NCBI GenBank assembly: GCA_018141785.1
Contig: CP073341.1
Location: forward strand, 1,657,422-1,721,421
Source: Candidatus Paraprochloron terpiosi LD05
GTDB taxonomy: Bacteria; Cyanobacteriota; Cyanobacteriia; Cyanobacteriales; Prochloraceae
Length of the DNA stretch: 64,000 bases
Reading direction: 5' to 3'
Below the pieces are notes generated by a model. It ran no database searches. It had not been told where the DNA came from and worked only from the letters and a program-made list of their open reading frames with translations. This document shows, piece by piece, positions 7,615 through 63,128 of the stretch. Both the position numbers and the translations under genes were made by a program. Each line of letters opens with the position of its first letter. Position 1 is the stretch's first letter.

Positions 7615-7665
7615 TTCTTCTAGGATGAAAGAGTTCCTGACGGAAGATAAGAGGTCTGCATCTAT

Positions 7666-8106
7666 TTAAACAAACCTTTGAACTTCAAAGGGTTCAAACT
7701 TTACATATCTTATTTCAAAACGAAGGTCACCACATCGAAATTGTGGACAGGCAAAAAGTGTAATTCCATTCATACCAAAATGTAAATCACGAATAATTCC
7801 TCCTCTTCTTCGATCTAGAAAGCCGTCAATAGCCACTAAATGTTCTCTGCTGTATCGGACAGTATCCATGCCATCACTGATGGTGATATCGAATCTAGAA
7901 ATATCTTCTATACCAAAAAAACTATCACGTTCGCTATCTATCTGGATTATTCCTGTCGCCATATGAACTCTTTCCGGTCCTGCTCTAACAGTCAACCCAT
8001 CAGCATCGCTTCGCCAACGAAATCTCAAAACATGAGATATAGCAGTAGCGGGTTGCGCCAGTAAGAATTGAAAAATTGCAATTATTATTATTGAATATTT
8101 TTTCAT
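7666..8106 (-). CDS. Hypothetical secreted protein
   Basis: The ORF has a signal-peptide-like MKKYSIIIIAIFQFLLAQPATA. I recognise no family. The start is taken at the internal Met rather than at 8148. Confidence 0.4.
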   Translation of the reverse strand: MKKYSIIIIAIFQFLLAQPATAISHVLRFRWRSDADGLTVRAGPERVHMATGIIQIDSERDSFFGIEDISRFDITISDGMDTVRYSREHLVAIDGFLDRRRGGIIRDLHFGMNGITLFACPQFRCGDLRFEIRYVKFEPFEVQRFV

Positions 8107-8116
8107 TTTGATTTCT

Positions 8117-8153
8117 GTAGGTGTGGGTAACGCTTGCGCTTTACCCAACCTAC
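8117..8153. repeat. REP-like hairpin, GTAGGTTGGGT...ACCCAACCTAC family
   Basis: GTAGGTGTGGGTAA-CGCTTGCGCT-TTACCCAACCTAC inverted repeat, immediately 3' of the htrA-like stop (8156). Related copies at 60311-60355, 61082-61111 and 63984-64000. Confidence 0.6.
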
Positions 8154-8155
8154 AA

Positions 8156-9361
8156 CTAAGAGATACTTTCTAGTTGAGCTGTTCGTACATTCAGAGACAA
8201 AGTATTATCTCCTCGTTTGATTTCAAAGCGGAGAGTTTCCCCCACGCCGCTTTTTTCCACAATGGACTGTAATTCCTCCGCATTGGTAATCTTTTGCCCC
8301 GCTACTTTGAGAATAACATCTCCCCGACGAATACCAGAACTAGCAGCAGGGGTATCTGGTAGAACTCCAACTACCAAAACCCCTTCTTCTTCCGGTACAA
8401 AGAAAGGAGAATTGGGGTTTTGATTGTATTGTTGGGCTAATGCTGGGTTCAGGGTAATCATTTGAATGCCCACATAGGGGTGGGGCACTTCTTTACCCGC
8501 AGCGAGAGTGTCTTTCAGGGCTTTTGCCTTATTAATAGGAATGGCAAAGCCGATACCTGTGGCATTGGGGCGAATAGCGGTATTGATCCCGATTACTTCC
8601 CCACGGTCGTTTAATAAGGGGCCACCAGAATTACCGGGATTGATGGCTGCGTCGGTTTGGAGGAAGTCCACTCGCTTATCAGGAACCCCTACCTGGGCAG
8701 AAGAACGATCTAGAGTGCTGATAATGCCCAAGGTGACGGTATTGTTCAAACCTAGGGGATTTCCCACGGCGATCGCCCAATCTCCTACCTGTACTTCACG
8801 AGAATTTCCCAAGGGAGCTATAGGTAAGTCTGCTCCCTGAGGCTCGATTTTCACTACTGCTAAATCCGTGACTGGATCGCTACCTTTCACTTCTCCTTCA
8901 AATTGACGCCCGTCTTTGAGGGTGACGGTGACTGTGTCCGCTCCGCTAACTACATGAGCATTGGTGAGAATGATACCGCTGTTATCGGTAATAAAGCCTG
9001 AACCCTGACCTCGCACTTCTCTTTCCCGGGGTGTTCCTCTCAAGCGATCGCCAAAAAAATCCCGGAAAAAGGGGTCATCAAAAAAGGGGTCCAGATTAGA
9101 GCGACTGGTGACGATTTTGGTAGTATCCAACCGCACCACCGCTGGACCAGTATTCGCTACTGCTGCGGCGACGAAGTTATCACCACTGGTGACGCCTGGT
9201 TTTAGGGCTACTGTGGTGGTAGGTTCTTGGGGTGGCTCCAATACCTCTGTTGGTTTAGCTTGGGAAGATAGCATCCGCAGACTGCTAAAGGCGAGAGCCA
9301 CTCCCAGCACCAGGGCGACGAAATGGGTACTGAATTGTCGAATAAATTTTGAGGATTTCAT
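8156..9361 (-). CDS. HtrA/DegP-family serine protease with C-terminal PDZ domain
   Basis: Catalytic motifs TNAHVV and GNSGGPL, a PDZ-like C-terminus (GDVILKVAGQKI) and an N-terminal signal/TM segment. Confidence 0.9.
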   Translation of the reverse strand: MKSSKFIRQFSTHFVALVLGVALAFSSLRMLSSQAKPTEVLEPPQEPTTTVALKPGVTSGDNFVAAAVANTGPAVVRLDTTKIVTSRSNLDPFFDDPFFRDFFGDRLRGTPREREVRGQGSGFITDNSGIILTNAHVVSGADTVTVTLKDGRQFEGEVKGSDPVTDLAVVKIEPQGADLPIAPLGNSREVQVGDWAIAVGNPLGLNNTVTLGIISTLDRSSAQVGVPDKRVDFLQTDAAINPGNSGGPLLNDRGEVIGINTAIRPNATGIGFAIPINKAKALKDTLAAGKEVPHPYVGIQMITLNPALAQQYNQNPNSPFFVPEEEGVLVVGVLPDTPAASSGIRRGDVILKVAGQKITNAEELQSIVEKSGVGETLRFEIKRGDNTLSLNVRTAQLESIS

Positions 9362-9502
9362 TATTTTGGTACAATTAGGGTAAATTTATTTTAACTTTTA
9401 GATTGGGGTTTTGTCTCGCCCTCGGCATCCCTTCCTTCGGCATCGCGGATGGCGAAGGGATGCCGAAGGAGGGCAAAGGCGCAAAGGGAGGAAGAATCGG
9501 AG

Positions 9503-12452: not shown

Positions 12453-13466
12453 ATGACAGTTACTCAGACAGATAACGTACCCCCAGCTGACTCCAGAGAA
12501 AGGGTCAAGCAATTCATGCAGGACCTGCAAGATGAAATCTGTAACGGTCTAGAAAAGTTGGACGGCAAGGAAACATTTCGGGAAGATAGTTGGTCCAGAC
12601 CGGAAGGTGGAGGAGGACGTTCTCGGGTACTCCAAGAGGGAAATGTTTTAGAACAAGGAGGGGTTAATTTTTCTGAGGTTTGGGGTGAAAAACTTCCTCC
12701 CTCTATCTTACAGCAACGCCCGGAAGCTGCGGGTCATGGTTTCTATGCCACGGGAACCTCTATGGTACTTCATCCTCGCAACCCTTTTGTTCCCACAGTT
12801 CACCTCAATTATCGCTATTTCGAGGCAGGTCCGGTTTGGTGGTTTGGGGGAGGAATAGATTTAACTCCTTACTACCCTTTTGCAGAAGATGCAGTTAATT
12901 TTCACCGCACTCTGAAACAAACTTGTGATAGTCATCACGAAGAATATTATCCGGTATTTAAAAGGTGGTGTGATGAGTATTTTTATTTAAAACATCGAGG
13001 AGAAATGCGAGGAGTAGGGGGACTTTTCCTGGACTATCAAGACGGTAGGGGTGCTTTATATCGCGGTCCCCATCAGGAAGGACCAGCAGCAATTTATAGT
13101 GATAAAATAGGGGAGATACCACCTCGCAGTTGGGAGGATTTATTTGCTTTTATAAAAGATTGCGGTCAAACATTTTTACCCGCTTATTTACCTATAGCAG
13201 AAAAACGGCACCCAACCCAATATGGGGAGCGAGAACGTAATTTTCAGCTCTATCGTCGGGGACGCTACGTTGAATTTAACTTAGTTTATGACCGAGGCAC
13301 TATTTTCGGTCTCCAAACCAACGGACGGACGGAATCCATTTTGATGTCCCTACCTCCTCTGGTTCGTTGGGAGTACGGTTATCAACCGGAACCCAACACC
13401 CCGGAAGCAAAACTCTATGAAACATTCCTCAAACCGCAAGATTGGGTAAATTGGCAACCGTCGTGA
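12453..13466 (+). CDS. hemF: Oxygen-dependent coproporphyrinogen III oxidase
   Basis: 337 aa with [35 protein letters not shown] and [16 protein letters not shown]. Confidence 0.93.
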
Positions 13467-15600: not shown

Positions 15601-15705
15601 GAACCGCAGAGACGCAGAGGACACAGAGAAGAGAAGAAAAGAGAAGAGAAGAGAGGGCAAGAGGAGAAGTTTCCAAAAACCTTTGCGCCTTTGCGCCTTT
15701 GCGCG
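15601..15705. repeat. Low-complexity dispersed repeat module (CGCAGAG / purine run / CCTTTGCG x3)
   Basis: AACCGCAGAGACGCAGAGGACACAGAGAAGAG...CCTTTGCGCCTTTGCGCCTTTGCGCG. Related modules occur at about 26931-27035, 29440-29515, 30697-30725, 33833-33905, 34554-34585, 56511-56550 and 63050-63115. Confidence 0.7.
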
Positions 15706-28972: not shown

Positions 28973-29161
28973 TCAAAATTTCGGATATAATCCTGCCTGC
29001 TTACAAATTTGATTTGCTGTAATTCTATCAAATGTTTTATGTCGTTTGACGGGTATCTTTTTGCTGTCATTTGTGTAGATTGAGTGATTACCACCTTCTC
29101 TTAAAAGATAAAAGCCATTTTCTTTCAAATAGGACAATAGTTCACGGCGTTTGACCGACAT
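28973..29161 (-). CDS. hicA: HicA-family mRNA interferase toxin
   Basis: MSVKRRELLSYLKENGFYLLREGGNHSIYTN...IPVKRH..., the YcfA/HicA signature. Start taken at the internal Met. Confidence 0.8.
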   Translation of the reverse strand: MSVKRRELLSYLKENGFYLLREGGNHSIYTNDSKKIPVKRHKTFDRITANQICKQAGLYPKF

Positions 29162-29381
29162 AATTAACCTCAACGGGCACTTGTTCTATCAGACTATTAC
29201 CTAAGGGGATCTCTTGGTTTTGCTGACAGTAGGCTAATACCATTTCCTGGGCTGCATCTCGCAACATTCGACGGCATTCTTCCAGGTCTTTTCCTTCTGT
29301 AACTACTTCTGGCCACTCCACTAGTTGCCCCATATAACCAGCATCAATTTTAGTGTATTTGGCGGTGTAAGTTTGAATCAT
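29142..29381 (-). CDS. hicB: HicB-family antitoxin (UPF0150-type, no DNA-binding extension)
   Basis: YTAKYTKIDAGYMGQLVEWPEVVTEGKDLEECRRMLRDAAQEMVLAY. It lies upstream of hicA and overlaps it by 20 nt. Confidence 0.75.
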   Translation of the reverse strand: MIQTYTAKYTKIDAGYMGQLVEWPEVVTEGKDLEECRRMLRDAAQEMVLAYCQQNQEIPLGNSLIEQVPVEVNYVGQTP

Positions 29382-29519
29382 TTTGTATTTTAGCTGATGT
29401 TGCTTGAAATTCTCAAGGTATCCAGGTTAAACTGTGCTGCTGTAGGGGCGCAAGGCTTGCGCCCTCTCAGATGTAAAATTCATTCATCCGCGTCTTTGGT
29501 GCGGTTCAAATAATCTACC

Positions 29520-30608
29520 ATGAACAAGAACGTTATTTTTCTCATTTTACTCCTTTTTATCCCAGTTTCCATCATCGGTAACTTTCTGGAGTGGGGATCA
29601 GTGGTAGTATTCATTACTGCTGGTTTAGGTATTGTACCCCTAGCTGCCTTTATGGGAGAAGCCACGGAAGAAATCGCTGTGGTAGTGGGACCAAATTTAG
29701 GGGGGCTGTTAAATGCTACCTTTGGTAATGCTACGGAACTGATTTTGGCTTTTTTCGCTCTGAAAGCAGGGCTAATTGAGGTAGTTAAAGCTACTCTTAC
29801 AGGCTCGATTATCAGTAATATCCTGTTGGTAATGGGTTTTGCTATGGTTTTGGGGGGACTCCGTTATAAGGAGCAAGAATTTCAGACAGCAGTTGCTCAG
29901 ACTAACTCTTCCCTCATGAATTTAGCAGTAATTGCCTTGTTAGTACCCACCGCAGTGGAATATACTTCTACTGGTATTGGGGAAGAAACTATCCAAACAC
30001 TTTCCGTTGCTGTTGCGGTTGTGCTTATTTTAGTCTATGGATTGAGTCTTTTGTTCTCTATGAAAACCCACTCCTATCTCTATGAGGTGGGGGTAGCTGA
30101 CTTAGAACAGGAAGAGGAACAGGATACAGAACCTCCTAAGATTTGGTTTTGGGTTATAGTGCTCTTAGCTGTCACTATCGGGGTAGCAGTGGAATCGGAA
30201 TTGTTGGTAGACTCTTTAGAAGAAGCTACTTCTAGTTTGGGACTAACTGCATTGTTTACTGGGGTGATTTTGCTACCTATTATCGGCAATGCTGCTGAAC
30301 ATGCTACTGCTGTGACGGTAGCCATGAAGGATAAGATGGATCTGTCTGTTTCTGTAGCTATTGGTTCTAGTTTACAAATTGCCTTATTTGTTGCTCCTGT
30401 GTTAGTTATTACTGGGTGGGCGATGGGTCAACCTATGGATCTGAATTTCAACCCCTTTGAGTTAGTTGCAGTTGCAGTAGCAGTGTTAATTATCAATTCT
30501 ATCAGTGCGGACGGGAAATCTAACTGGTTGGAAGGAGGTTTGCTGTTAGCTACTTACACTGTCTTGGGTTTAGCGTTTTATTTCCATCCTGTGGTGGTAG
30601 GGTTATAG
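29520..30608 (+). CDS. Ca2+/H+ antiporter (CaCA/CAX family)
   Basis: About 11 TM segments. Duplicated alpha-repeat motifs GNATELI and GNAAEHATAV. Confidence 0.9.
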   Translation: MNKNVIFLILLLFIPVSIIGNFLEWGSVVVFITAGLGIVPLAAFMGEATEEIAVVVGPNLGGLLNATFGNATELILAFFALKAGLIEVVKATLTGSIISNILLVMGFAMVLGGLRYKEQEFQTAVAQTNSSLMNLAVIALLVPTAVEYTSTGIGEETIQTLSVAVAVVLILVYGLSLLFSMKTHSYLYEVGVADLEQEEEQDTEPPKIWFWVIVLLAVTIGVAVESELLVDSLEEATSSLGLTALFTGVILLPIIGNAAEHATAVTVAMKDKMDLSVSVAIGSSLQIALFVAPVLVITGWAMGQPMDLNFNPFELVAVAVAVLIINSISADGKSNWLEGGLLLATYTVLGLAFYFHPVVVGL

Positions 30609-30743
30609 GAATAAATTCTAGGGGGACAAATTTTCTAGTTGAGAATTTCATAATTTTCTCATTCCCCCTATAGTACATCAAAATACCATTCCCATAACCC
30701 TTTGCGCCTTTGCGTCTTGGCGCGAAACTCAAATATCGGTTCT

Positions 30744-31613
30744 TTAGGTATTTGTCTCCAACCACCGAATTAAATCTGCCACTTGGTCAAAATCCAACAC
30801 CGCTTCACCTAATGTTTCTAACCGCTCCAAGGGTAAGATTTCAACTTGAGACTGTTGGGCTGGGGAAAGGGAGCCAACACGATGGCGCAGCAGCCTTATA
30901 ATTAACCTCCGTTCTCCTTCCCAACGTCCTTCAACTCGTCCCTCTTGGAGTCCTTCAATTCGTCCTTCTTGTAAGCCTTCTTGTAGTCCTTCCTGATAAA
31001 CCCTGGTGTGCTTGACGCTTTCTGCTAATCCCAACATTGCTGCAATCTCCTTACGACTTAATTGGGGAAACTTGTATACCATTGTAGTCTCAATCAACTC
31101 CAAGATTTTTTCCTTGGGAATTTTTGTATCCTCGGTTTGGTTGACTTGCGCCCATAATGTTCTTGCGAGTTTAGGTACTTGCTTGTCAGGTTTGACAATT
31201 AATTCCATCAGCCCTAGGGTAGGGGAAAACTCACCTGTTGAAGACAGCAGTTCATTGAGATAAAAACGTTGAACCTGTTCAGAGTTTCGGGGAGTCAGGT
31301 TCCAAGGAGCGCCGAGGAAAAATAACAACTGCCTGCTAATCCGAGATATTGGGATGAAAGAGCTAAAAACATAAATAGTTCCCCAAACAAGCGATGATAG
31401 AGTAATTCATCTTTTTGGAATTGAACTTCTACAAAAAAACCGGTTCATCCACTGCGTCGGGAGGGGGTAGAAATACTCCATCAATCCTGAAAGCTGTTTG
31501 TTTGACTTCTATGGAACGAAAATGATACCTTGCTCGGTAGGGTTGTCCAATGAGTTCAAAGAAAATCTCCGGCACACTCTGGAAAATACGGTAGAAGAGG
31601 GAGGGCGACTCGT
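30744..31613 (-). pseudogene. Rpn/YhgA-like (DUF2887 + DUF4351-type) putative nuclease/transposase, frameshifted copy 1
   Basis: The C-terminal part is intact (EIAAMLGLAESVKHTRVYQEGLQEG...LSPAQQSQVEILPLERLETLGEAVLDF). The N-terminal homology (SLFYRIFQSVPEIFFELIGQPYRARYHFRSIEVKQTAFRIDGVFLPPPDAVDEP) is in another frame and is broken at a T7 run (TAG). Copy 1 also carries a ~24-nt deletion relative to copy 2. Confidence 0.65.
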
Positions 31614-32798
31614 TCTGAGCGAAAAAGTCGCGGCTTAATAGGCCAAAACTATAATCTCAGGCTAGGTGCACTACACCTTGACAACTAAATCAGGAATGTT
31701 GGTGAGGAGCTGGTCAGCAATCAGTCTTCCAAGTCCAACCGCTTAAGGGATAAGCGAATCTCTATCTGCCCACACGCGACTGTGAATTCAAGCAGGCTCG
31801 CCGGGTTAGCCTCCGGGGCGTGAAGCTGGGGACAGGGCGCAATCAGAGCCGAAAGGCGCACTGGCGCTAATGGGGAGAATCCATGGTTAACAGGTATCCT
31901 AGAAATAGGTACGCACTCACCGGAAAAAGCGTCTAATATACCGAAGCACAACCTCGTTGGGCTTTCGTATCGGCATACAAATCCCGCTCTGTCTTTTCCT
32001 CGACAAGAGCATCTCTGGGGGTCGATAGGCGAATTGGTGAGACCTAAAGGTTCAGTGCGGCTCGAAAGTCGCAGTAGTTAGTGGGTAAAACCCCATGGGA
32101 AGTGTCTTCCCCGGTTCCCGCCCGAAGAAGCTTTGGCAGTAATGCCGGAGTTTCACAGCTAGAGGGTTAAATGGCCAAGCTACTATCAGTCCGATGATGG
32201 TAGCGGCCTAGGGAAAGTCTGATATGGTGAGCATAAAGCAAAGCTTGCAACCTCGTCATAGGTAATGAGTGAAAGCGGTACTGTTACACTCTAACCAAAA
32301 CGGTATGCGGCATATGTGAAAGATGGACTGGAATCGTCATCGCGTAGACACCACGCCGCCGGGGGATGGAGCAGCCCGCCGTCAGACGTATCTAACTATT
32401 GTGGAACGAGTTAACCTCCACAGGGTCTGAGAAATCAGTAGGGAAGCTGTAAAGCGAACCAACTCCCTGGGGAGAAAGGACTCTCCTAAAAAGCGAACGC
32501 TGCCAGGACGAAAGTTCAGGGGAATCAATAACCCGGCAGATAGGCAAATGTCTACTCGAAAGGGGAGCTGACGTAGGAGAGGGTGAAACGTAACGGTAAA
32601 ATCCCTTATCACTTGCGATTTTGCCTTTCCATTAGCTGGAACTTGAAACTCAAAGCTCCTCAGAAGTTAGAGGCGTCGGGCAAACGTCAATGGCGAGGAG
32701 GTTGGAATTTAAGGACTCAAAGCCCAATCTGAATGAGACCTGAAAGCCGACACAAGTAATGAGGAGTAAACGCGCCAGCGAGTAGGATGATACACCAG

Positions 32799-32832
32799 GA
32801 GCCGGGTGCTTAGAAACTTGCACGCCCGGTAC
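32799..32832 (+). ncRNA. Degenerate group II intron domain V-like hairpin
   Basis: GAGCCGGGUGCUUAGAAACUUGCACGCCCGGUAC has the same 34-nt architecture as 33317-33350 (AGC triad, AC bulge, GAAA loop). It differs by an A-A mismatch in the lower helix and a weak upper helix. Confidence 0.5.
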
Positions 32833-33316
32833 TGTGAGGGGGAAAACCTGTAAGGTCTCACCTATCTCGACAAACAATTTCTGATTTTGGAACGAGGAAA
32901 AACGGATGGTTCTTTCTCCTAGGGGTGGTACCCGGAGTGGGAAGGCAGGCATACTTCTATCGAGGCCATTCGGATAGGACGCGGGAACGAAAGCCACGAT
33001 GCTAAACAATTGCCCGCAATGTGTTGGAGCTAATTACCAACCAGTTAGGAGACGCCCACAGGCTGAAAATATGCCACATATACGCCATATAGCAGAAGGG
33101 ATAACTCTAGTTCCGAATTTTAGGTCGGGGTAAGATGACGCCGAGTAGGAATATAATCCGAATTTTAGGCTCCCGTTAAATCCGAGTAGGAACCAGCAAA
33201 ACTGAGACTGGACAGTATTTAAGGCGAAGATTGCCACAATCTGACTTCCATAACTAGATAGAGGCAATCAATGGATTTTCTATCTTTTGCGGTAGGTTTC
33301 AATCCACAGGTCATAG

Positions 33317-33350
33317 GAGCCGTGTGAGGCGAAAGTTTCACGCACGGTTC
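33317..33350 (+). ncRNA. Canonical group II intron domain V
   Basis: GAGCCGUGUGAGGC-GAAA-GUUUCACGCACGGUUC forms a 9-bp lower helix with the AGC catalytic triad, a 2-nt AC bulge, a 5-bp upper helix and a GAAA tetraloop. Confidence 0.85.
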
Positions 33351-33461
33351 TGAAAGGGAGCTGGGGTGGGTGACCACTCCTTCGACCCGAACATCTACTT
33401 TTCATGAATCATTACTCTGTCAGCTAAATAATTTCAGTTCAATAAAATTGTGATTAACTAT

Positions 33462-33596
33462 TTAACTGAACCGATGATAACCTAGTACTTCTACATAACT
33501 CAAGGCTGAGACGGCTGGCGTACATTGGGCTATGAAACGTCTCAGCTCAGAATTTTCTGGTCTAGCTGCATAAATGATAATATTGCTATCCAGGAG
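33462..33596 (-). pseudogene. VapC (PIN-domain) toxin remnant, N-terminal ~45 aa only
   Basis: MLLDSNIIIYAARPENSELRRFIAQCTPAVSALSYVEVLGYH then stop. PIN proteins are ~130 aa. Upstream (33650-33790) an antitoxin-like frame (VDYAVLKGNHLEWTDDVPLSDRP) carries a TAA at codon 3. Confidence 0.5.
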
Positions 33597-33905
33597 CATT
33601 CTTAGTTTCTCTGGGGAAGGGAACGGTCTTGGCGCAACTTTCGCTGCCATGTCATGGGATCTACGTCAGAGTAGGCTTTACTTTGAGTTAATTGCTCAAG
33701 AGCCGAACCGCCCTAGGGCGATCGCTGAGAGGAACATCATCAGTCCACTCTAGGTGGTTTCCCTTCAATACAGCGTAGTCAACATTTTCTTAAATCATTG
33801 TATTTCCCTTCTTATTATATAACAAACTTATTCCTTTGCGCCTTTGCGTCTTTGCGCGAGACATAGAATTTTTGGTTTCACGCTCCGGCGCTCCGGCGCG
33901 GAGAG

Positions 33906-34529
33906 TTAGAGGAGATAAACGAGAACGAAGAGAATAACCCAGACTACGTCCACAAAGTGCCAGTAAAGTTCGGCTGCTTCTACTCCAAAATGACTGTTTT
34001 CGGAATAGTGTTCTGGTTGGCGGGATCGCCACAAAACGGCTAAAATGAGCAACAGCCCTAGGGTAACATGTAAACCGTGAAATCCAGTGAGAACGTAGAA
34101 GCAACTGGTAAAGACATTCAGGGTTAAACCAAATTCGGCGTGGCTATATTCATATAGCTGTCCCAGGAGAAAAATTGCTCCCATAGCCGCAGTAATAGCA
34201 AACCAAAGCTGCAACCCAGGAACATCATTTTTCTGAATGGCACTTTGACCTTTGTGCATGACGAAGCTGCTCGAAATCAGGATAATACTATTGATTCCCG
34301 GTATCAAAAGTTCCAACTCGGGGGTTCCTTCTGGAGGCCAAACTGGCATCATGCTCCGATAGATTAAGAAGGCACCAAAGAGACCGAGGAAAATCATGCT
34401 TTCGGCCACGAGAAAGACGATGACACCTAACATGCGATGGTCAGGATGTTCCCCGTGAGTACCTTCATTTTTCAGCTCTTTGTGATAGTTGAGGGCTAGT
34501 TTTGGATCTTCTACAGTTGAACTTTGCAT
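33906..34529 (-). CDS. ctaE: Cytochrome c oxidase subunit III
   Basis: 207 aa with 5 TM segments. FYVLTGFHGLHVTLG and WHFVDVVWVILF. Confidence 0.93.
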   Translation of the reverse strand: MQSSTVEDPKLALNYHKELKNEGTHGEHPDHRMLGVIVFLVAESMIFLGLFGAFLIYRSMMPVWPPEGTPELELLIPGINSIILISSSFVMHKGQSAIQKNDVPGLQLWFAITAAMGAIFLLGQLYEYSHAEFGLTLNVFTSCFYVLTGFHGLHVTLGLLLILAVLWRSRQPEHYSENSHFGVEAAELYWHFVDVVWVILFVLVYLL

Positions 34530-34586
34530 CTTGTTGTTGGTGGTTGTTATAGAAACCGCAGATGAACACAGATGAACGCAGATAAA

Positions 34587-36269
34587 TTAAGATTGGGCGC
34601 TCACTTCTGTTAACATGTCTTCTACGTCTTCTTCATCCTCATTTTCACTGTCAATGCCGTATTCGTAGGGGCCAGCCCACAAAACTGGTTCTGACTCAAA
34701 GTTTTCTATGGCGGGAGGTGAAGTGGTTTGCCACTCTAAGGTTAGGGCACGCCAGGGATTCCGACCTGCTTTTTTTCCTTTTATTAAACTCCACAAAACG
34801 TTAATTACTAAGGGCAGAGTAGAAACAGCTAAGATATAAGAACCGATAGTACAAACTTGGTTCAAGGATTGAAATTGGGGGTCATAAAGGGCAATGCGAC
34901 GATTCATCCCTAATAAACCCAATTGGTGCATGGGCAAAAAGGTCATGTTGAAGCCAATAAAGGTGAGGGCAAAGTGAATTCTCCCCCAAGTTTCATTGAG
35001 CATTCGTCCTGTCATTTTGCCAAACCAATGATACAGTCCCGCAAAGAGAGCAAAAACAGAACCTCCGAAGAGAACGTAGTGGAAATGAGCTACAATGAAG
35101 TAGGTGTCGTGAACATGAATGTCAAAGGGTACGGCTGCTACCATTACTCCACTCAATCCCCCAATTAAGAAGGAGGAAATAAAGCCGATCCCAAAGAGCA
35201 TAGCGCTGTTGAGTTCGATTTTACCACCCCAAATGGTGGCACACCAACTAAATATTTTAATCCCTGTGGGTACTGCAATAAGCATGGTGGTGGCCATGAA
35301 AAACATCCGCAACCAACCGGGAGTACCACTCGTAAACATGTGGTGTGCCCAAACAATTAGTCCCAAAAAGGCGATCGCCAAACTGGAATAGGCGATGGCC
35401 CGATAGCCAAAAATGGGCTTGCGGGCATGGACTGGTATTACTTCGGAAATGACCCCAAAAAAGGGCATCACCATAATGTATACCGCTGGGTGGGAGTAGA
35501 ACCAGAACATATGCTGGTAAATAATGGGATCTCCTCCCCCTACCGGATTAAAAAAGCTAGTTCCGGCGATTAAGTCAAAGGAAAGGAGAATTAAAGCTGC
35601 TGCTAAAACAGGGGTACCGATTAACACCAGAGCGGAAGTAGCCAACATGGACCAGCAAAACAGGGGCATACTGTTGAGATCCATCTCTGGAATGCGCATT
35701 GTTAGGATGGTAATGCCAAAATTGAGGGCACCCAAAATGGAAGATGTGCCTAAAATTAACAGGCTCATAATCCAAATTTCCTCTCCCCATTTCCCCGACA
35801 TTAAGCTTAAAGGGGGGTAAGAAGTCCAACCTGCTTGAGGAGCGCCCACAAAAAAGCTACTTATTAACAGCACACCCCCTACAGGAATCATCCAAAATGC
35901 CACCGCATTTAACCGGGGAAATGCCATATCCTCTGCACCGATCATCAGGGGAATGAGATAGTTAGCAAAGGCAGCACCCGCTGGAATAATCCACAGGAAC
36001 AGCATTATGGTGCCGTGCATGGTAAACATTTGATTGTACATTTCCGGTTGCACCAAGTCCGGATCGGGAGTGGCTAATTCTGTGCGCACTATTTCCGCTA
36101 AGAAACCCCCGATGAAGTAGAAGAAAAATGAGGTGACTAGGTATTGAATGCCGATTACTTTGTGATCGGTGCTGAAGGTAAAATAATCCTGCCATTTCCT
36201 TTGCTTGTGGGAGGAACCGTGTCCGTTTTGACTGACAGGATTTTCTTTCGTTTCTGTTGCTGTGGACAT
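34587..36269 (-). CDS. ctaD: Cytochrome c oxidase subunit I
   Basis: 560 aa. WFYSHPAVYIMVMP, HHMFTSG and FHDTYFIVAHFHYVLFGG (heme/CuB ligand regions). Confidence 0.97.
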   Translation of the reverse strand: MSTATETKENPVSQNGHGSSHKQRKWQDYFTFSTDHKVIGIQYLVTSFFFYFIGGFLAEIVRTELATPDPDLVQPEMYNQMFTMHGTIMLFLWIIPAGAAFANYLIPLMIGAEDMAFPRLNAVAFWMIPVGGVLLISSFFVGAPQAGWTSYPPLSLMSGKWGEEIWIMSLLILGTSSILGALNFGITILTMRIPEMDLNSMPLFCWSMLATSALVLIGTPVLAAALILLSFDLIAGTSFFNPVGGGDPIIYQHMFWFYSHPAVYIMVMPFFGVISEVIPVHARKPIFGYRAIAYSSLAIAFLGLIVWAHHMFTSGTPGWLRMFFMATTMLIAVPTGIKIFSWCATIWGGKIELNSAMLFGIGFISSFLIGGLSGVMVAAVPFDIHVHDTYFIVAHFHYVLFGGSVFALFAGLYHWFGKMTGRMLNETWGRIHFALTFIGFNMTFLPMHQLGLLGMNRRIALYDPQFQSLNQVCTIGSYILAVSTLPLVINVLWSLIKGKKAGRNPWRALTLEWQTTSPPAIENFESEPVLWAGPYEYGIDSENEDEEDVEDMLTEVSAQS

Positions 36270-36444
36270 AGGTTATGATTGCTGGTTAGTTTAGGTTTGG
36301 TTTAGTTATTGAGTTAACGGTTTCGTTCCTAACTCGCCCGCGAATAAATTGCTGGCTCACAGATCAAGTCCACCCTTCGGAGGACTGTTATCGTGTTTCT
36401 TATCTTTTTTTGGTGACGGACAACATCAGATGTGAGGATTATTG

Positions 36445-37323
36445 TCATGGTACGTGATAATTGGCAACTGCTTCATCTAAGAATGATTCTTGGGCAAAAG
36501 TATTGTTTTGTACCCACTGATTGTACTCTGCCTCCGTCTCTATAAACAAGGTGGTTTTCATAGCGCCATGGTATGCACCGCATAACTCAGCGCAAATGAT
36601 AGGATACTCTCCCACTCGGTCAGGAACAAAGGTCAACTGAGCCTCTCGCCCGGGAACTGCATCTTGTTTCAAACGCAGTTGAGGCACCCAGAAAGCGTGA
36701 ATTACGTCCGCTGCTGAGATATTTAGGGTCACTTGGCGATTCACGGGAACGTGGAGTTCTCCAGAGACAACACCAGTGTCGGGATAGGTAAAAAGCCAAG
36801 CGTACTGAAGTCCATTCACGTCCACAACTAAACTTTCTTCATCTTTATTTCCAGGGGAAGCACCCAATCCGAGAGCCATTTCTTGCCCTTCTAGGTCTAA
36901 AGCCACCAGGTTGTCATTATGATGGTGATGAGCCATTTGGGTTCCCATATCGTGGGAAGCCATGGGATCCAGACCCCCCATTTTGTTATAGACCTCAAAA
37001 CTGTAGATGGCTAGGATAAAGACAATAACAGCAGGAATCGCAGTCCAAACAATTTCCAGAGGAATATTGCCTTCAATGGGGGGACCGTCCGTTAGATCCC
37101 CTTTACGTCTGCGAAATTTAAAGATGGAGATGATGAGCACCCCTTCAATGAGTAAAAAGAGACCCGTGGCTATGGTCATCATGAAATTGAAGAGTTCGTC
37201 AACCGTCCTCGCCTCTGCTGAAGCTGCTATGGGCATCAGACCGTGATTTTGTCCGTACCACAGGCAAATCAGGGTTAGGGCGATTCCGGCTATGAGAGTG
37301 AGAATGTTACTTGGAATCTTCAC
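36445..37323 (-). CDS. ctaC: Cytochrome c oxidase subunit II
   Basis: Two N-terminal TM segments. CuA site DVIHAFWVP ... CAELCGAYHGAM. GTG start. Confidence 0.93.
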   Translation of the reverse strand: MKIPSNILTLIAGIALTLICLWYGQNHGLMPIAASAEARTVDELFNFMMTIATGLFLLIEGVLIISIFKFRRRKGDLTDGPPIEGNIPLEIVWTAIPAVIVFILAIYSFEVYNKMGGLDPMASHDMGTQMAHHHHNDNLVALDLEGQEMALGLGASPGNKDEESLVVDVNGLQYAWLFTYPDTGVVSGELHVPVNRQVTLNISAADVIHAFWVPQLRLKQDAVPGREAQLTFVPDRVGEYPIICAELCGAYHGAMKTTLFIETEAEYNQWVQNNTFAQESFLDEAVANYHVP

Positions 37324-37442
37324 GATTATAGCTTCCCTTAATTGCCTATGTATATAAGGATAACGAAAAATAATTGATTGGACCTGTCTCTGTGAATCTT
37401 TTGTTTTTTTTCGGGATCACCTTAACAGTGACCAGTTATCAG

Positions 37443-37685
37443 TTACCAGCTCCTGAGGGGTGAGGGGAATAGTTGATACAGAATATATTCTAGCAATATC
37501 TGTAAATAGGCTCGCGCCCCCAAATTAAAGACTTGATCACTTCTACATCCCTTGCAGGTAGATAGTTTCCCAAATCCATATAGTTTGACCGCTGCTGCTG
37601 GGTGCATTTCCCCACCAAGTTGTTCGGGAGTAACCTTGAGCGCTAAAGCTGTCTCTTCCGGTAAAGATAAAGTCACATGTATCAT
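37443..37685 (-). CDS. Possible UPF0175-like small protein (weak)
   Basis: The N-terminus MIHVTLSLPEETALALKVTPEQLGGEMHPAAAVKLYGFGKLS resembles UPF0175 antitoxin-like proteins. The C-terminal half does not, and the ORF ends in an STRR-like heptamer repeat. Confidence 0.25.
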   Translation of the reverse strand: MIHVTLSLPEETALALKVTPEQLGGEMHPAAAVKLYGFGKLSTCKGCRSDQVFNLGARAYLQILLEYILYQLFPSPLRSW

Positions 37686-37795
37686 GAATCATTCCTATGT
37701 TCCATTTAAATAAAATTTTTTCCCAAACCACCAAAATGCTCGCCCCTAAACCCTTTGCGCCTACTCGGTGGGCGCGAAACTCAAATATCGGTTCT

Positions 37796-38690
37796 TTAGG
37801 TATTTGTCTCCAACCACCGCATTAAATCTGCCACCTGGTCAAAATCCAACAGCGCTTCACCTAATGCTTCTAACCGCTCCAAGGGTAAGGCTTCAACTTG
37901 AGACTGTTGGGCTGGGGAAAGGGAGCCAACACGATGGCGCAGCAGCCTTATAATTAACCTCTGCTCTCCTTCCCAACGCCCCTCAACTCGTCCCTCTTGA
38001 AGTCCTTCAATTCGTCCCTCTTGAAGTCCTTCTTGTAGACCTTCCTGATAGACTCTGGTGTGCTTCACACTTTCTGCTAATCCTAACATTGCTGCAATCT
38101 CCTTACGACTTAATTGGGGAAATTTATAAACCATTGTAGTCTCAATCAACTCCAAGATTTTTTCCTTGGCAATTTTTGTATCCTCGGTTTGGTTGACTTG
38201 TTGCCATAATGTTCTTGCTAGTTTAGGTACTTGCTTCTCTGGTTTGACAATTAATTCCATCAGCCCTATGGTAGGGGAAAACTTACCTGTCTCAGACAGC
38301 AGTTCATTGAGATAAAAACGTTGAACCTGCTCACTCGACAATAATGCTTCATAGAGTTTTCTCTTGTCAGGTGACCGGGTGCGTCGAGGAAAGATAACAA
38401 CTGCCTGCCAATCTGAAATATGGGGATGAAAGAGCCAAAAACATGAATAGCTCCCCAAACAAGCGATGATAGAGTAATTCATCTTTTTGGAATTGGACTT
38501 CTACAAAAAAAACCGGTTCATCCACTGCGTCGGGAGGGGGTAGAAATACTCCATCAATCCTGAAAGCTGTTTGTTTGACTTCTATAGAGCGAAAATGATA
38601 CCCTGCTTGGTACGGTTGTCCAATGAGTTCAAAGAAAATTTCCGGTCCACTCTGGAAAATGCGGTAAAATAGGGAATCTGTTTTCAGAAT
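37796..38690 (-). pseudogene. Rpn/YhgA-like (DUF2887 + DUF4351-type) gene, copy 2, at least one frameshift and no ATG
   Basis: N-terminal frame: TDSLFYRIFQSGPEIFFELIGQPYQAGYHFRSIEVKQTAFRIDGVFLPPPDAVDEPVFFVEVQFQKDELLYHRLFGELFMFL. C-terminal frame: SDWQAVVIFPRR...DUF4351-like tail. The frame switch is near 38425-38440. Confidence 0.65.
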
Positions 38691-38929
38691 TTAATCGACT
38701 TACCGCCATTAATAGTATAACCCAAAAGATATTGAATTAGCGAAGTATTACCAATGACATTAAGTACGCAATTACCCAAACTAATTGATTGGATCCCCAG
38801 GGGAGGGGATCAAGCGATACCAGGGAGCTGCCACATCCTAATCTAAATCTGAAGAATAGCTAAAGTAATCCAGGAATTCCCATATAGAGTAATTATGCTC
38901 TAAGATAGCTTAACCCTTTCCTTTGTTTC

Positions 38930-39823
38930 ATGACAGAATCAGTCCTTCATCATCAGCAGGAAACACGTTCGCCAGAAAAATGGATTCGCAGCTTAGTGTG
39001 GAAGATAGGGATCGCCACTTTGTTGCTCATGGCTATCGGTAGTGCCACCCGAGTGATGAATGCAGGTCTTGCCTGTCCCGACTGGCCCCTGTGTTACGGC
39101 CAACTCATACCCAGCCAGCAGATGAATTTCCAGGTATTCCTGGAGTGGTTTCATCGCCTGGACGCCTCCCTTATTGGCTTAAGCACCATTGGACTGGTGT
39201 CCCTGAGCTGGTGGTGGCGGCGGGACTTGCCCTCATGGCTGCCTTGGGCGTCCCTCTTTGCTTTATTCCTGGTGGTTTTCCAAGGTATTCTCGGTGGACT
39301 GACAGTAACGGAAATGCTGCGGTTCGATATTGTCACCGCTCATTTGGGCACAGCACTGTTATTCTTCAGTACCTTAGTGGCTATAGGAGCTATGCTAACG
39401 CCCATAGATGCAAAAATACCAAGACACCTCTCCTGGGTGGGTTTAACGGCTGCTATCCTTGTCTACGGGCAGAGTTTAGTTGGGGGTTTAGTGGCCTCCC
39501 GTTGGGCTTTACATCAATGTCTCGGTGGTGCTGGACTCTGTACTGTGATGAATAGTCACCTCTTTGGAGTATTACCCCCCACCCTAGCCACCTTAACCCT
39601 CTTCTTCCTAGGGCGACGTAAAGCTGTCGCACACCCAATTTTAAGGCAGTTAGCTAACCTGGGGGCTGGTTTAGTTCTGGGGCAAATTCTCCTGGGTATT
39701 GCCACTTTTCGCTTCCATTTACAAGTAGAACTGCTGACGGTTTCCCACCAAACCGTGGGAGCAGTCTTGCTCGGTACCCTAGTGGCTTTTACAGTTTTAG
39801 CCAATAGAAGCCAGCAGATATGA
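38930..39823 (+). CDS. ctaA: Heme A synthase (COX15/CtaA family)
   Basis: 8 TM segments. GLACPDWPLCYG, EWFHRL and VSHQTVGAVL motifs. Confidence 0.85.
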   Translation: MTESVLHHQQETRSPEKWIRSLVWKIGIATLLLMAIGSATRVMNAGLACPDWPLCYGQLIPSQQMNFQVFLEWFHRLDASLIGLSTIGLVSLSWWWRRDLPSWLPWASLFALFLVVFQGILGGLTVTEMLRFDIVTAHLGTALLFFSTLVAIGAMLTPIDAKIPRHLSWVGLTAAILVYGQSLVGGLVASRWALHQCLGGAGLCTVMNSHLFGVLPPTLATLTLFFLGRRKAVAHPILRQLANLGAGLVLGQILLGIATFRFHLQVELLTVSHQTVGAVLLGTLVAFTVLANRSQQI

Positions 39824-39851
39824 ATTTTAATAAGGAAATAAGGTACAATCA

Positions 39852-40757
39852 ATGATTGGGACAACTGTTGCTCGCCGGAATACAAACCTCCTGGAAGTGG
39901 TACAAAGCTACTATCAATTGACCAAACCCCGCATTATTCCCCTGTTGCTCATTACTACAGCAGCAGCTATGTGGATAGCTTCCTCAGGAAGTGTAGATCC
40001 TCTACTTCTCTTCTTTACCCTCCTAGGGGGAACTTTAGCTTCAGCTTCAGCCCAAACTTTCAACTGCATTTACGACCAAGACATAGACTATGAAATGCTG
40101 CGCACTAGGTCTCGTCCCATTCCTGACGGTCAAGTGCAGCCCAGTCACGCTCTCATTTTTGCCATTATTTTAGGTGTTCTTTCCTTTACCATTCTAACAG
40201 TCTTTGTCAATCTCTTGGCTGCCCTCTTAGCTATCTCTGGCATTGTTTTTTACATGGTAATCTATACCCACCTACTCAAACGTCATACCGTGCAAAACAT
40301 CGTTATTGGTGGTGCTGCTGGTGCTATTCCCCCCTTAGTAGGTTGGGCTGCGGTGACTGGGAACTTGAGTTGGACTCCCTGGGTGCTGTTTGGGATAGTT
40401 TTCCTCTGGACTCCACCTCATTTCTGGGCCTTATCTTTAATCATTAAAGAAGATTACGCTCAAGTAGGAGTACCCATGCTCCCTGTAGTAGCTGGGGAAG
40501 AATCTACTGCCAATCAAATTTGGCTATATACCCTCTTGACTGTTCCTTTTACCTTATTATTGGTGTATCCTTTGGCAGCTTCCGGGGTAGTTTATGGCCT
40601 AATTGCTTTGTTTTTGGGAGGTATTTTTCTGCGCAAAGCATGGCAATTGAAACAGGAACCCTCTGATAAAGAATTGGCCCGCTCTCTGTTTAAGTATTCC
40701 ATTCTCTACATGATGTTATTGTGTACGGGTATGGTGGTAGATAGTCTACTGCCATAG
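39852..40757 (+). CDS. ctaB: Protoheme IX farnesyltransferase (heme O synthase)
   Basis: UbiA-family motifs [19 protein letters not shown] and WTPPHFWAL. It follows ctaA. Confidence 0.93.
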
Positions 40758-58410: not shown

Positions 58411-58507
58411 CAAATACCCCAGATGACGCAATCTATATTATAATAATAAAGACAGCAGGTACCATTAGTACTGATAAGTGTCATAGTACGTGCTAACTGC
58501 TCACTGG

Positions 58508-58535
58508 TAACTGATAACTGATAACTGATAACTGG
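58508..58535. repeat. STRR-like heptanucleotide tandem repeat (TAACTGA)x4
   Basis: TAACTGATAACTGATAACTGATAACTGG abuts the predicted ilvB GTG start. The same heptamer in reverse orientation (ACCAGTT ATCAGTT ACCAGCT) occurs at ~37430-37450. Confidence 0.8.
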
Positions 58536-60286
58536 TGGTTTCCTCAACTATCCTTCCCCCAAAAATATCCGTTACTCGTCAAACAGGGGCATTTGCCCTC
58601 ATTGACAGCTTAGTGCGTCACGGAGTCAAGCATATTTTCGGCTATCCCGGTGGCGCGATCCTGCCCATATATGATGAGGTATATCGGGCAGAATCTCGGG
58701 GAGACATTCAGCATATTCTCGTCCGTCACGAACAAGGAGCAGTTCATGCAGCAGACGGCTATACCCGCGCCACGGGTAAAGTAGGGGTGTGTTTCGCAAC
58801 TTCTGGTCCCGGTGCTACGAACCTGGTAACGGGCATCGCTACGGCTCACATGGATTCTATTGCTATGGTGGCGGTTACAGGGCAGGTGCCTCTAGGGGCC
58901 ATCGGTACCGATGCTTTCCAAGAAACGGATATCTTCGGTATTACCCTACCTATTGTGAAACATTCCTACCTGGTAAGGGATGGCAAGGATATGGCCCGCA
59001 TCGTTGCCGAAGCCTTCCATATCGCCAGTACAGGTCGTCCGGGACCGGTTTTAATCGATGTGCCCAAGGATGTGGCCTTAAAAGAAGTGGACTATGTACC
59101 TGTGGAACCGGGTGCAGTGCATTTAACAGGCTATAAACCTATCCTCAAGGGTGATATCAGTAAAATCGATGCTGCTTTGCGCCTCATGGAGGTGGCGAAA
59201 CAACCTCTCCTCTACGTGGGGGGTGGGGCAATTTCTGCTAATGCTCATCTTCAAGTAAAGGAACTGGCAGAACGGTTTCAAATCCCTGTAACCACTACTC
59301 TCATGGGGTTAGGAGCCTTTGATGAAAACCATCCTCTCTCCGTGTCTATGTTGGGAATGCATGGCACCGCTTATGCTAACTTCGCCGTCAGTGAGTGTGA
59401 TTTGCTTATTGCTGTGGGTGCTCGATTTGATGACCGAGTAACAGGTAAGTTAGATGAATTTGCCTCCCGTGCTCAGGTAATTCACATCGACATCGATTCC
59501 GCAGAAGTGGGGAAAAACCGCGCCCCGGAGGTGGGTATTGTAGGGGACGTAAGGCAGGTATTAGAGCAGATGCTGTCCCGGGCGCGAGAATTAGGGTTTC
59601 CTACTGATGTTAAACGGACAGCTAAGTGGTGGTCCCGCATTGATGGCTGGCGCAAAGATTATCCTTTAATGGTACCGAACCATAAGGATAATTTGTTTCC
59701 CCAAGAAGTTATTGTAGAGATAGGGCGTCAAGCTCCTCATGCTTATTATTCTACCGATGTGGGTCAACACCAAATGTGGGCGGCTCAGTTCCTGAAAAAT
59801 GGTCCCCGTCGCTGGATTTCCAGTTCTGGGTTGGGAACGATGGGTTACGGTCTTCCCGCTGCTCTGGGGGTAAAGGTAGCATTACCCCATGAAGAAGTTA
59901 TCTGTATCAGCGGAGATGGCAGTTTCCAGATGAATTTGCAGGAGTTGGGAACGCTTTATCAGTATAATATTAACGTCAAGACGGTTATTATTAATAATGG
60001 CTGGCAGGGTATGGTGCGCCAATGGCAGCAAACTTTCTACGGTGAGCGTTATGTGGCTTCCAATTTAGAATTGGGAATGCCTGATTTTGAGTTGTTAGCC
60101 AAAGCTTACGGTATCAAAGGGATGGTTATTAGGGAGCGGGCACAATTATCGGATGGTATTGCTGCTATGTTAGCCCATGATGGTCCGGTGTTGATGGATG
60201 TACGGGTGAAGAAGGACGAAAACTGTTACCCCATGGTTGCTCCTGGTAAGAGCAATGACCAAATGCTGGGACTGCCACAAAAATAA
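58535..60286 (+). CDS. ilvB: Acetolactate synthase large (catalytic) subunit
   Basis: [30 protein letters not shown] and the ThDP motif [14 protein letters not shown]...NN. GTG start uncertain. Confidence 0.93.
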
Positions 60287-62998: not shown

Positions 62999-63128
62999 CT
63001 TTTATTTGACTTCGTACCTCTATAATAAAATAAAAACCCATTTCATGTAATCCTTCCCTCTTACCTTTGCGACTTTGCGCCTCTGCGAGTCTTTCGAGCG
63101 GCTACTTTGCGCGAAATTAAAATATTTG

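Follow-up and report, generated by a model that had tools for sequence, protein, structure and literature searches.

Here we analyze a stretch of 64,000 nucleotides (nt) from Candidatus Paraprochloron terpiosi LD05, a sponge-symbiont cyanobacterium (Terpios symbiont), in which the genes ctaE, ctaD and ctaC stand between two similar sequences in the same orientation. We call the whole 64-kb stretch the window, and all window coordinates refer to it. In our reading, which we hold to be very probably correct, the two repeats are independently placed and inactivated copies of an Rpn-family gene (rpn) that flank an ancestral cta operon in LD05, and the arrangement is a case of ordinary genome decay.

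The repeat pair is far above chance level. A gapped local alignment of positions 30696-31602 (copy 1) with 37749-38675 (copy 2) has 835 identical columns out of 929 (89.9%), and blastn reports 89.7% identity over 928 nt with E = 0. The copies are spaced by ~7,053 nt, copy 1 is shorter than copy 2 by 20 nt, and repeat finding extends a fainter similarity to ~30676 and ~37729. Ten identical tracts are at least 25 nt long, with the longest measuring 73 and 70 nt. A tblastn comparison of the frame-corrected rpn protein to the whole window returns copies 1 and 2 only. An earlier reading of this DNA made without database searches (hereafter, the sequence-only reading) had proposed repeats of ~90% identity in the same orientation around ctaE-ctaD-ctaC, and both the pairwise alignment and blastn bear it out. 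It drew copy 1 as 30697-31655; the repeat is indeed there, but it stops at 31602, and positions 31603-31655 are the 5′ end of a group II intron. Instead of the indel of ~24 nt that it described, we find a deletion of 20 nt in copy 1.

Between the repeats lie two matches to group II intron domains V/VI on the plus strand, a PIN-domain remnant, the ctaE, ctaD and ctaC genes, and a UPF0175-like open reading frame (ORF); ctaA and ctaB stand beyond, in divergent orientation. All the intervening elements named by the sequence-only reading are thus present, but the group II intron is not merely between the copies: it sits inside copy 1.

Both copies are minus-strand genes, with longest ORFs of 228 and 194 amino acids (aa). 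These ORFs match PF11103 (DUF2887) with 111.4 and 77.8 bits for a cut-off of 24.1, and PF14261 (DUF4351) with 78.2 and 74.3 bits for a cut-off of 25. The closest database protein is P0001, intact and 296 aa long, which is 94% identical to frame-corrected copy 2 and whose 90% cluster includes both window ORFs. P0001 reaches 247.7 bits against PF11103 and 81.9 against NCBIfam TIGR01784 (cut-off 52.1), a family that carries the name 'Rpn family recombination-promoting nuclease/putative transposase'; by themselves, the truncated ORFs of the window reach 32.3 and 28.5 and stay under that last cut-off. Among 8,000 candidates scored, 3,921 are homologs at E <=1e-20. Nothing sets the intact orthologs P0001 and P0123 apart within the cyanobacterial DUF2887 + DUF4351 proteins (TIGR01784), whose domain architecture the window shares in pseudogene versions only. 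We take the repeats to be two disrupted Rpn-family genes, combining a DUF2887 nuclease domain with DUF4351, that would encode a predicted nuclease. A decayed Rpn/DUF4351-like gene in each copy is also what the sequence-only reading had proposed, and the domain matches and the lesions that we find in each copy uphold it. The NCBI annotation of LD05 lists the pseudogene fragments as separate proteins of 228 and 194 aa, and no entry was returned for the 228-aa window ORF when it was looked up as an exact protein.

The Rpn proteins of E. coli are PD-(D/E)XK nucleases, and RpnA mutants at D11, D63, E82 or Q84 are inactive (PMC5350276). P0001 and the copy 2 frame contain the motifs KTD, FRIDG and VEVQ, in which a 19-residue spacing from D to E is followed by E-x-Q, as in the N-terminal nuclease of RpnA with its 19- and 2-residue spacing of D63, E82 and Q84; the catalytic residues are matched to RpnA by motif and spacing, not by explicit alignment. 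The genes studied here differ from those of E. coli in that their N-terminal domain is the cyanobacterial DUF2887 (PF11103) and not Transposase_31 (PF04754). Both window copies are disrupted, moreover, and nuclease, toxin, antitoxin and defence roles are only predicted here. A sequence search of P0001 against the PDB gave no credible match (best E 0.75), and P0001 matched none of the PADLOC models.

We compared the window to loci from four relatives: the SP5CPC1 genome bin (L001 and L083), Prochloron didemni (L002), a 4.74-Mb genome (L082 and L085) and a 4.72-Mb genome (L084). The Paraprochloron-type relatives are ~93-96% identical to the window. In the window ctaE (33906-34529), ctaD (34587-36269) and ctaC (36445-37323), all on the minus strand, are intact and in ancestral order. 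The order ctaB-ctaA / ctaC-ctaD-ctaE is conserved in L001, L082 and L084, and the order ctaA / ctaC-ctaD-ctaE in Prochloron (L002). No rpn copy occurs in the ctaA/ctaC spacer of L001, L002, L082 or L084. Conservation extends over 124 nt upstream of ctaC and 87 nt upstream of ctaA, and the cta genes show ordinary orthologous divergence. Because the gene order is ancestral in all four relatives, the cta operon was not acquired between the repeats, and we regard it as an ancestral, intact bystander. As a side observation, SP5CPC1 lacks ~300 nt at L001 5256-5264 relative to window positions 36161-36462. Missing there are the end of the ctaC coding sequence, the spacer between ctaC and ctaD, and ~36 codons from the start of ctaD; this gap is either a real deletion or a misassembly of the bin.

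One might instead see in the repeats the ends of a composite mobile unit, or of an acquired island, that brought cta in, and the sequence-only reading had considered that the operon might have been acquired, or rearranged, as a composite unit. On either side of the operon there is indeed, in the same orientation, a copy of a gene annotated as 'putative transposase', so that repeats of ~0.9 kb flank a cargo-like operon as in a composite transposon, and intron and toxin-antitoxin remnants of mobile type lie nearby. But the window repeats are not insertion sequences: a transposase of known type, terminal inverted repeats and target duplications are all lacking. The supposed cargo is in its ancestral position, with its order and flanks conserved in relatives that do not have copy 2 and with a divergence that is ordinary for orthologs. 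Published work, in addition, describes rpn genes as moving without transposon ends and as not behaving like transposases (PMC10400941). We give this explanation almost no weight.

The resident copy and its intron block

Copy 1 is a pseudogene in two pieces. Codon 5 to the stop occupies 30744-31602 on the minus strand and is collinear with the intact 296-aa orthologs of L082 and L084; the first four codons, at 33393-33405 (ATG at 33405-33403, minus strand), are split off by the intron block, as the sequence itself and the L082/L084 junction indicate. With 31603-33392 removed, copy 1 is collinear with L082 and L084 through the ATG and the upstream region. Both L082 and L084 have their intact rpn gene at the place of copy 1, where it adjoins the gene of the Na/Ca exchanger, towards ctaE. 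Because an intact rpn occupies the same place in these two genomes, copy 1 is the resident gene, and it would have been present before the split of LD05, L082 and L084. A vapC (PIN) gene next to it, at 33462-33650 on the minus strand, is truncated: in SP5CPC1 it is full length and runs for ~80 codons past its end in the window, L082 and L084, and in these three it is cut at one same point, where the rpn upstream region starts. The resident rpn would thus have truncated vapC when it entered the locus.

Apart from the intron, copy 1 carries four lesions. There is a -1 frameshift at an A/T run (31433-31439) that has 7 residues, vs. 8 in copy 2 (38505-38512), which is the T7/T8 difference that the sequence-only reading had seen; a +1 patch at 31351-31363 that it has in common with copy 2; a TAG for TGG within 31331-31342; and the 20-nt deletion, with its junction within 31274-31288. 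We propose that the intron insertion killed the gene, and that a frameshift, the stop codon and the deletion were gathered afterwards.

The 3′ flank of copy 1 (30696-30743, minus strand) is common to copy 2, L082 and L084. It includes a CCTTTGCG octamer module at 30699-30724 that forms a GCGCC...GGCGC hairpin, and the presence of this module in the 3′ flank of both copies confirms what had been noticed from the sequence alone. The octamer is found at several intergenic sites of the window, in 2-3 tandem units (9478-9487, 15680-15705, 30699-30724, 33833-33858, 37752-37761 and 63064-63081), and CCTTTGCGCC with at most one mismatch has 16 matches in the window vs. 3.2 expected. Several of the CCTTTGCG sites are just 3′ of stop codons (rpn copies 1 and 2, ctaE, and an ORF ending at 15708), with a GCGCC/GGCGC hairpin possible. 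The octamer may be a terminator-associated dispersed repeat.

Two further observations concern this neighborhood. The resident rpn (at 10001-10891 in L082 and also in L084) has a synonymous divergence (pS) of 0.01 between L082 and L084 and of 0.06 between the window and L082, whereas most genes around it have 0.08-0.19, and ~300 nt are identical between copy 1 and the L082 rpn. The hicB gene (window 29142-29381) is likewise unusually similar, with pS 0.02-0.04. The low divergence of both genes suggests recent allele exchange between these symbiont lineages. In L084, the stretch from ctaE to rpn holds, at 6609-8438, two small ORFs and a gene for an amidohydrolase, none of which is present in the window or in L082; the ctaE-rpn intergenic region is therefore a hotspot of gain and loss.

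The intron block measures 1,790 nt (31603-33392, plus strand), and it lies antisense in copy 1 at codons 4/5. The site is empty in L082 and L084, which join the equivalent of window position ~33399 straight to 31602. The 3′ end of the block, ...CCCGAAC, is the exact end of the stronger of two matches to Rfam RF00029, and it is followed by ATCTAC TTTTCAT, the reverse complement of the first rpn codons. Both matches exceed the gathering score of 40: the domain V/VI at 33315-33392, assigned to an outer intron, has 59.4 bits, and the one at 32797-32871 has 46.1 bits. The latter would belong to an inner intron at 32055-32871 (plus strand) that starts GTGCGGCTCG..AAAGTCGC. The block begins with GGGCG at 31603 and the putative inner intron with GTGCG at 32055, for a consensus of GUGYG, and what follows GTGCG resembles the 5′ sequence of the outer intron. 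From this 5′ motif and the two domain V/VI matches, the inner intron is probably nested in the outer one, as a twintron. We find no similarity of the outer and inner introns to each other, and none of the block to the rest of the window or to any of the fetched loci. An Rfam E-value scan of the block reports the two domain V/VI matches only, and no intron model for domains I-IV. The probably nested group II intron is absent from the LD05 annotation.

The block has no ORF of 120 aa or more within 31603-33392, and so no intron-encoded reverse transcriptase. Bacterial group II introns without an ORF, and nested 'twintrons', have been described in cyanobacteria such as Thermosynechococcus. The window resembles them in having two domain V/VI elements on one strand within one precise 1.79-kb insertion and no reverse-transcriptase ORF; it differs in that the outer intron starts with GGGCG and lies antisense to the gene that it interrupts, and in having no related copy in the window or the fetched loci. 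Since the intron is antisense to rpn, it is not spliceable from the rpn mRNA, and its insertion would have been the event that killed copy 1. The LD05 genome is reported to have 50 reverse-transcriptase genes (PMC9298193), and these could serve the ORF-less intron in trans.

Copy 2 and the spacer between ctaA and ctaC

Copy 2 (37796-38687, minus strand) is inside the divergent ctaA/ctaC spacer, as had been recognized from the sequence alone. Its start position is a CTG (38687-38685) where relatives have ATG or GTG, and a +1 patch at 38423-38435 shifts its frame; otherwise the frame is open, and the catalytic D, D and ExQ are kept. Both the frame switch, which the sequence-only reading put near 38430, and the missing ATG are therefore real features of this sequence.

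Copy 2 is part of a patchwork block of 1,395 nt (37448-38842, minus strand) that is specific to LD05. The homology of L001 and L082 to the window is lost at 37447 and regained at 38843, with the same breakpoints in both. In place of the block these genomes have ancestral spacers of 143 nt (L001) and 188 nt (L082), which match each other at 83 of 96 positions and which score against the 1,395-nt block no better than shuffled controls. A pure insertion of the block is rejected, as neither ancestral spacer aligns within it; the ancestral spacer being absent from the window, the block has replaced the spacer's middle. The ctaA/ctaC spacers of L084 and Prochloron are likewise short (~430 and ~360 nt) and have no rpn.

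Read in gene direction, the block starts with ~75 nt without an assigned origin, including a palindrome at 38792-38811. After these, a UPF0175 gene contributes its end and a DUF3368 (PIN-like) gene its first ~14 codons (38764-38725); fused to the latter are the final codons of a dockerin-domain gene (38726-38704), and the fusion spans 38704-38764 on the minus strand. The rpn gene follows with its 3′ flank (38690-37749), then the 126 nt that begin a UPF0175 gene, and lastly a tail, which closes at the junction with a heptamer repeat. The UPF0175-like remnant is an ORF at 37443-37685 (minus strand), of which only the first 126 nt (37685-37560) are homologous, at 89%, to the UPF0175 gene of L082. 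The translations VLNVIGNTSLIQYL and LGYTINGG upstream of copy 2 match L082 genes at 12952 and 12605-12627. A 12-nt match between the leaders of the UPF0175 remnant and of rpn (E 0.31) was too weak and was not used.

The dockerin, UPF0175 and DUF3368 genes form in L082 a cassette of 2.2 kb, inside the exchanger gene and adjoining the resident rpn. At L082 11018-14517 the Na/Ca-exchanger gene is split by this cassette, which consists of a heptamer-repeat ORF, the dockerin gene and the UPF0175 + DUF3368 toxin-antitoxin pair; in the window (29520-30608), as in L084, the exchanger gene is unbroken. Heptamer arrays of the CAGTTAC/CAGTGAC type are found at window positions 37424-37449 and 58470-58536 and at L082 11716-11839 and 20068-20129, with one long array in L082 inside a 186-aa ORF.

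In our reading, copy 2 would have reached the LD05 lineage only, within a 1.4-kb patchwork that includes fragments of the dockerin/UPF0175/DUF3368 cassette, and illegitimate recombination would have put this patchwork in place of the middle part of the ctaA/ctaC spacer. We favor this mechanism because there are no inverted terminal repeats (none are found in 29000-40500) and no target duplication at the block junctions, and because one junction, the ctaC-side breakpoint, is in a heptamer tandem repeat (CAGTGAC CAGTTAT CAGTTAC, 37424-37449). Movement of rpn without inverted repeats or target duplications, and with variable ends, is also a feature of E. coli Rpn; here it took the form of a replaced spacer for copy 2 and a truncated vapC for the resident copy.

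Relationship and age of the two copies

We aligned both copies with the two orthologs and a pair of outgroup paralogs. Copy 1 has the state of the orthologs, and copy 2 another, at 61 sites; for 30 of them an outgroup paralog has the state of copy 2. The orthologs side with copy 2 at 26 sites. Only 5 sites group copy 1 with copy 2, and 3 of these are in the frameshift patch. The pS values are 0.062 for copy 1 vs. L082, 0.156 for copy 2 vs. L082, and 0.21 for copy 1 vs. copy 2, when most neighboring genes have 0.11-0.19 between the window and relatives (hicB is lower). With a copy-to-copy pS of 0.21 against 0.11-0.19, and so few joint sites, the repeats are therefore not a fresh duplication. 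Copy 2 would be a separately arrived allele or paralog of resident type, of about the age of the species split.

Copy 2 is 93.3-93.5% identical to the rpn genes of L082 and L084 over 38690-37749, and 81-84% identical to the rpn genes of a tandem array at the CobA locus. That array was considered as the source of copy 2 and rejected on this difference. A 141-nt fragment that terminates L083 has much the same identity (90-92%) to every resident-type gene, and a metagenome scan for a donor locus using the frame-corrected copy 2 protein found no relative nearer than 57%. The array itself consists, at the CobA/CobO locus of L085 (3463-6936), of four tandem rpn genes with 6, 5, 11 and 4 repeat units, and of at least 2 tandem rpn genes in SP5CPC1 (L083 4270-5279); array genes overlap by ~20 nt, and tandem arrays of rpn are known in E. 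coli as well. The sequence-only reading had considered that related genomes might have scattered copies with no relation to cta. In part they do: the extra rpn copies of the relatives are at another locus, unlinked to cta.

The tiny +1 patch is the one lesion common to both copies. They both read GCTCTTTCATCCC where L082 and an outgroup paralog read GCTC-AAAATCCC, and the shared patch is flanked on both sides by copy-specific sites within 5-25 nt. Its best reading is a very short gene-conversion tract, by which the frameshift would have passed between the copies.

These data bear on the idea that rpn was duplicated in place recently, and that the repeats delete or reversibly excise ctaCDE in part of the symbiont population. 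Same orientation, 90% identity and the ten identical tracts are what such a process would need, and the shared, complex frameshift patch suggests at least one sequence exchange between the copies. But the copies are not sisters (61 sites against 5), their pS is at least as deep as that between species, and both the LD05 assembly and a Logan contig described below are undeleted. Homologous recombination is strongly reduced at 90% identity, which counts further against this idea. We find it distinctly unlikely. Deletion of cta by recombination between the repeats, as the sequence-only reading had suggested, is sound in its geometry and possible in principle: a crossover would remove the intron block, the vapC remnant, ctaE, ctaD, ctaC and the UPF0175 remnant, leaving one hybrid copy, and at this level of identity it would be rare.

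A second concern is the assembly. LD05 was built from Nanopore and Illumina reads (PMC9298193), and the lesions, or even the block, may be artefacts that hybrid assembly has produced at repeats. Among the lesions there is one difference in homopolymer length, and the shared patch is next to the part in which the copies resemble each other most (95-99%) and in which polishing with short reads can correct one copy by the other. Errors of the homopolymer type, on the other hand, do not take the form of an inserted intron, a 20-nt deletion, a TAG, a CTG start or a patchwork. In addition, a Logan contig from SRR14292612, which is independent and made from short reads, is 100% identical to the window over 33834-37800, crossing the ctaC-side junction and covering the first 52 nt of copy 2. 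We judge artefact to be a very improbable explanation.

Several points nevertheless weigh against two separate arrivals followed by decay. The distances between three taxa leave the tree unrooted, and it is possible that a duplication in the LD05 lineage was followed by gene conversion from other paralogs; the rpn copies of LD05 are known here from the 64-kb window only. Given how LD05 was assembled, a sequencing error could account for the homopolymer frameshift of copy 1, and the shared patch could be a polishing artefact, reads of one copy correcting the other. At the ctaA side, the junction of the block is seen in the LD05 assembly and in no second source. As for the intron, a search for exon-binding pairings of at least 7 nt found none, and the case for nesting consists of the one 5′ motif and the two domain V/VI matches.

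The internal start and the RpnS-like frames

Although the full-length frames are broken, each copy has an intact internal ORF of 97 aa at its 3′ end, at 30744-31037 in copy 1 and 37796-38089 in copy 2 (both minus strand). In each, an AAGGAG (31052-31047 and 38104-38099) is found 9 nt ahead of the ATG (31037-31035 and 38089-38087), and the protein has seven 4-aa repeat units followed by DUF4351. In E. coli, a small C-terminal protein, RpnS, is made from an internal start and blocks the long form; its 4-aa repeats begin 8-20 residues past the start and vary in number, and DUF4351 is its domain when stand-alone (PMC10400941). RpnL/RpnS pairs are gene-within-gene toxin-antitoxin and phage-defence systems (PMC5350276, PMC10400941).

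The cyanobacterial genes have the same layout, with a C-terminal DUF4351 part that has its own conserved internal start. The xxEG repeat units start at residue 14 of the internal ORF, and their number is 3, 4, 5, 6, 7 or 11 in the L082-L085 paralogs, 7 in both window copies and their orthologs, and 9, counted by eye, in P0002. The internal ATG is present in 66 of 66 sequence clusters of family genes from diverse cyanobacteria, a set that made use of the loci from the metagenome scan with the copy 2 protein. Ahead of it, the Glu codon is GAG in 62 and GAA in 3, for a GAG background of 27% in the same genes (P ~8e-32), and the K/Q codon ahead of that Glu ends in G by 33:1. Such a synonymous codon bias at an AGGAG-type motif indicates selection on the nucleotide sequence, as for a ribosome-binding site. 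Judged by these features, the cyanobacterial DUF2887/DUF4351 genes would fit the published RpnL/RpnS model of a gene within a gene.

Do the window copies still make use of the internal start? One may propose that they are not dead but have only their nuclease part disabled, and that each expresses the 97-aa RpnS-like protein as a stand-alone antitoxin or regulator. The internal ORFs are complete and properly spaced from AAGGAG, the conservation of the start across the family exceeds what the amino acids require, and stand-alone DUF4351 genes are known (PMC10400941). Between copy 2 and L082, the internal part has 13 synonymous and 2 nonsynonymous changes (P ~5e-7 under neutrality); purifying selection thus acted on copy 2 over most of its history, and its death is recent. 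The same part of copy 1, however, has 1 synonymous and 5 nonsynonymous differences from L082, with no sign of constraint, and copy 1 appears to be drifting. On its own branch, over the whole gene, copy 2 has 8 synonymous and 8 nonsynonymous changes, so that constraint is only partial. Open frames of ~300 nt are expected by chance at such low divergence, and within the 64-kb window LD05 has no cognate intact RpnL with 7 repeats. We consider it unlikely that the copies persist in this role.

A more elaborate version brings these pieces together: copy 2 would have reached the cta spacer through a RecA-independent joining, of microhomology type, of several short pieces of a related rpn neighborhood, the frameshift would have been passed from copy to copy by short-patch gene conversion, and both copies would persist as nuclease-dead, RpnS-only genes that still yield an antitoxin-like protein with 7 repeats. 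RecA-independent recombination is the kind of event that Rpn nucleases promote in E. coli. We likewise give it only a small chance, and keep to two inactivated copies in a decaying locus.

For the cta genes all this has little consequence, as these are intact ancestral genes that retain their proximal upstream regions. Two decayed copies from a known gene family have come to stand on either side of them, in a symbiont genome with many mobile elements. The value added is modest: the states of rpn movement, and evidence at the DNA level for a conserved RpnS start. The locus is a worked example of how rpn spreads and decays, for which the relatives give the states before and after two separate arrivals, and both arrivals left no transposon-like ends, in agreement with published work on Rpn. 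'Unknown function' or 'putative transposase' is the current label of a large group of these cyanobacterial genes. In the DUF2887/DUF4351 family of cyanobacteria as a whole, an internal Shine-Dalgarno sequence and ATG are under selection, which would extend to these genes the E. coli model of an 'antitoxin within a toxin'.

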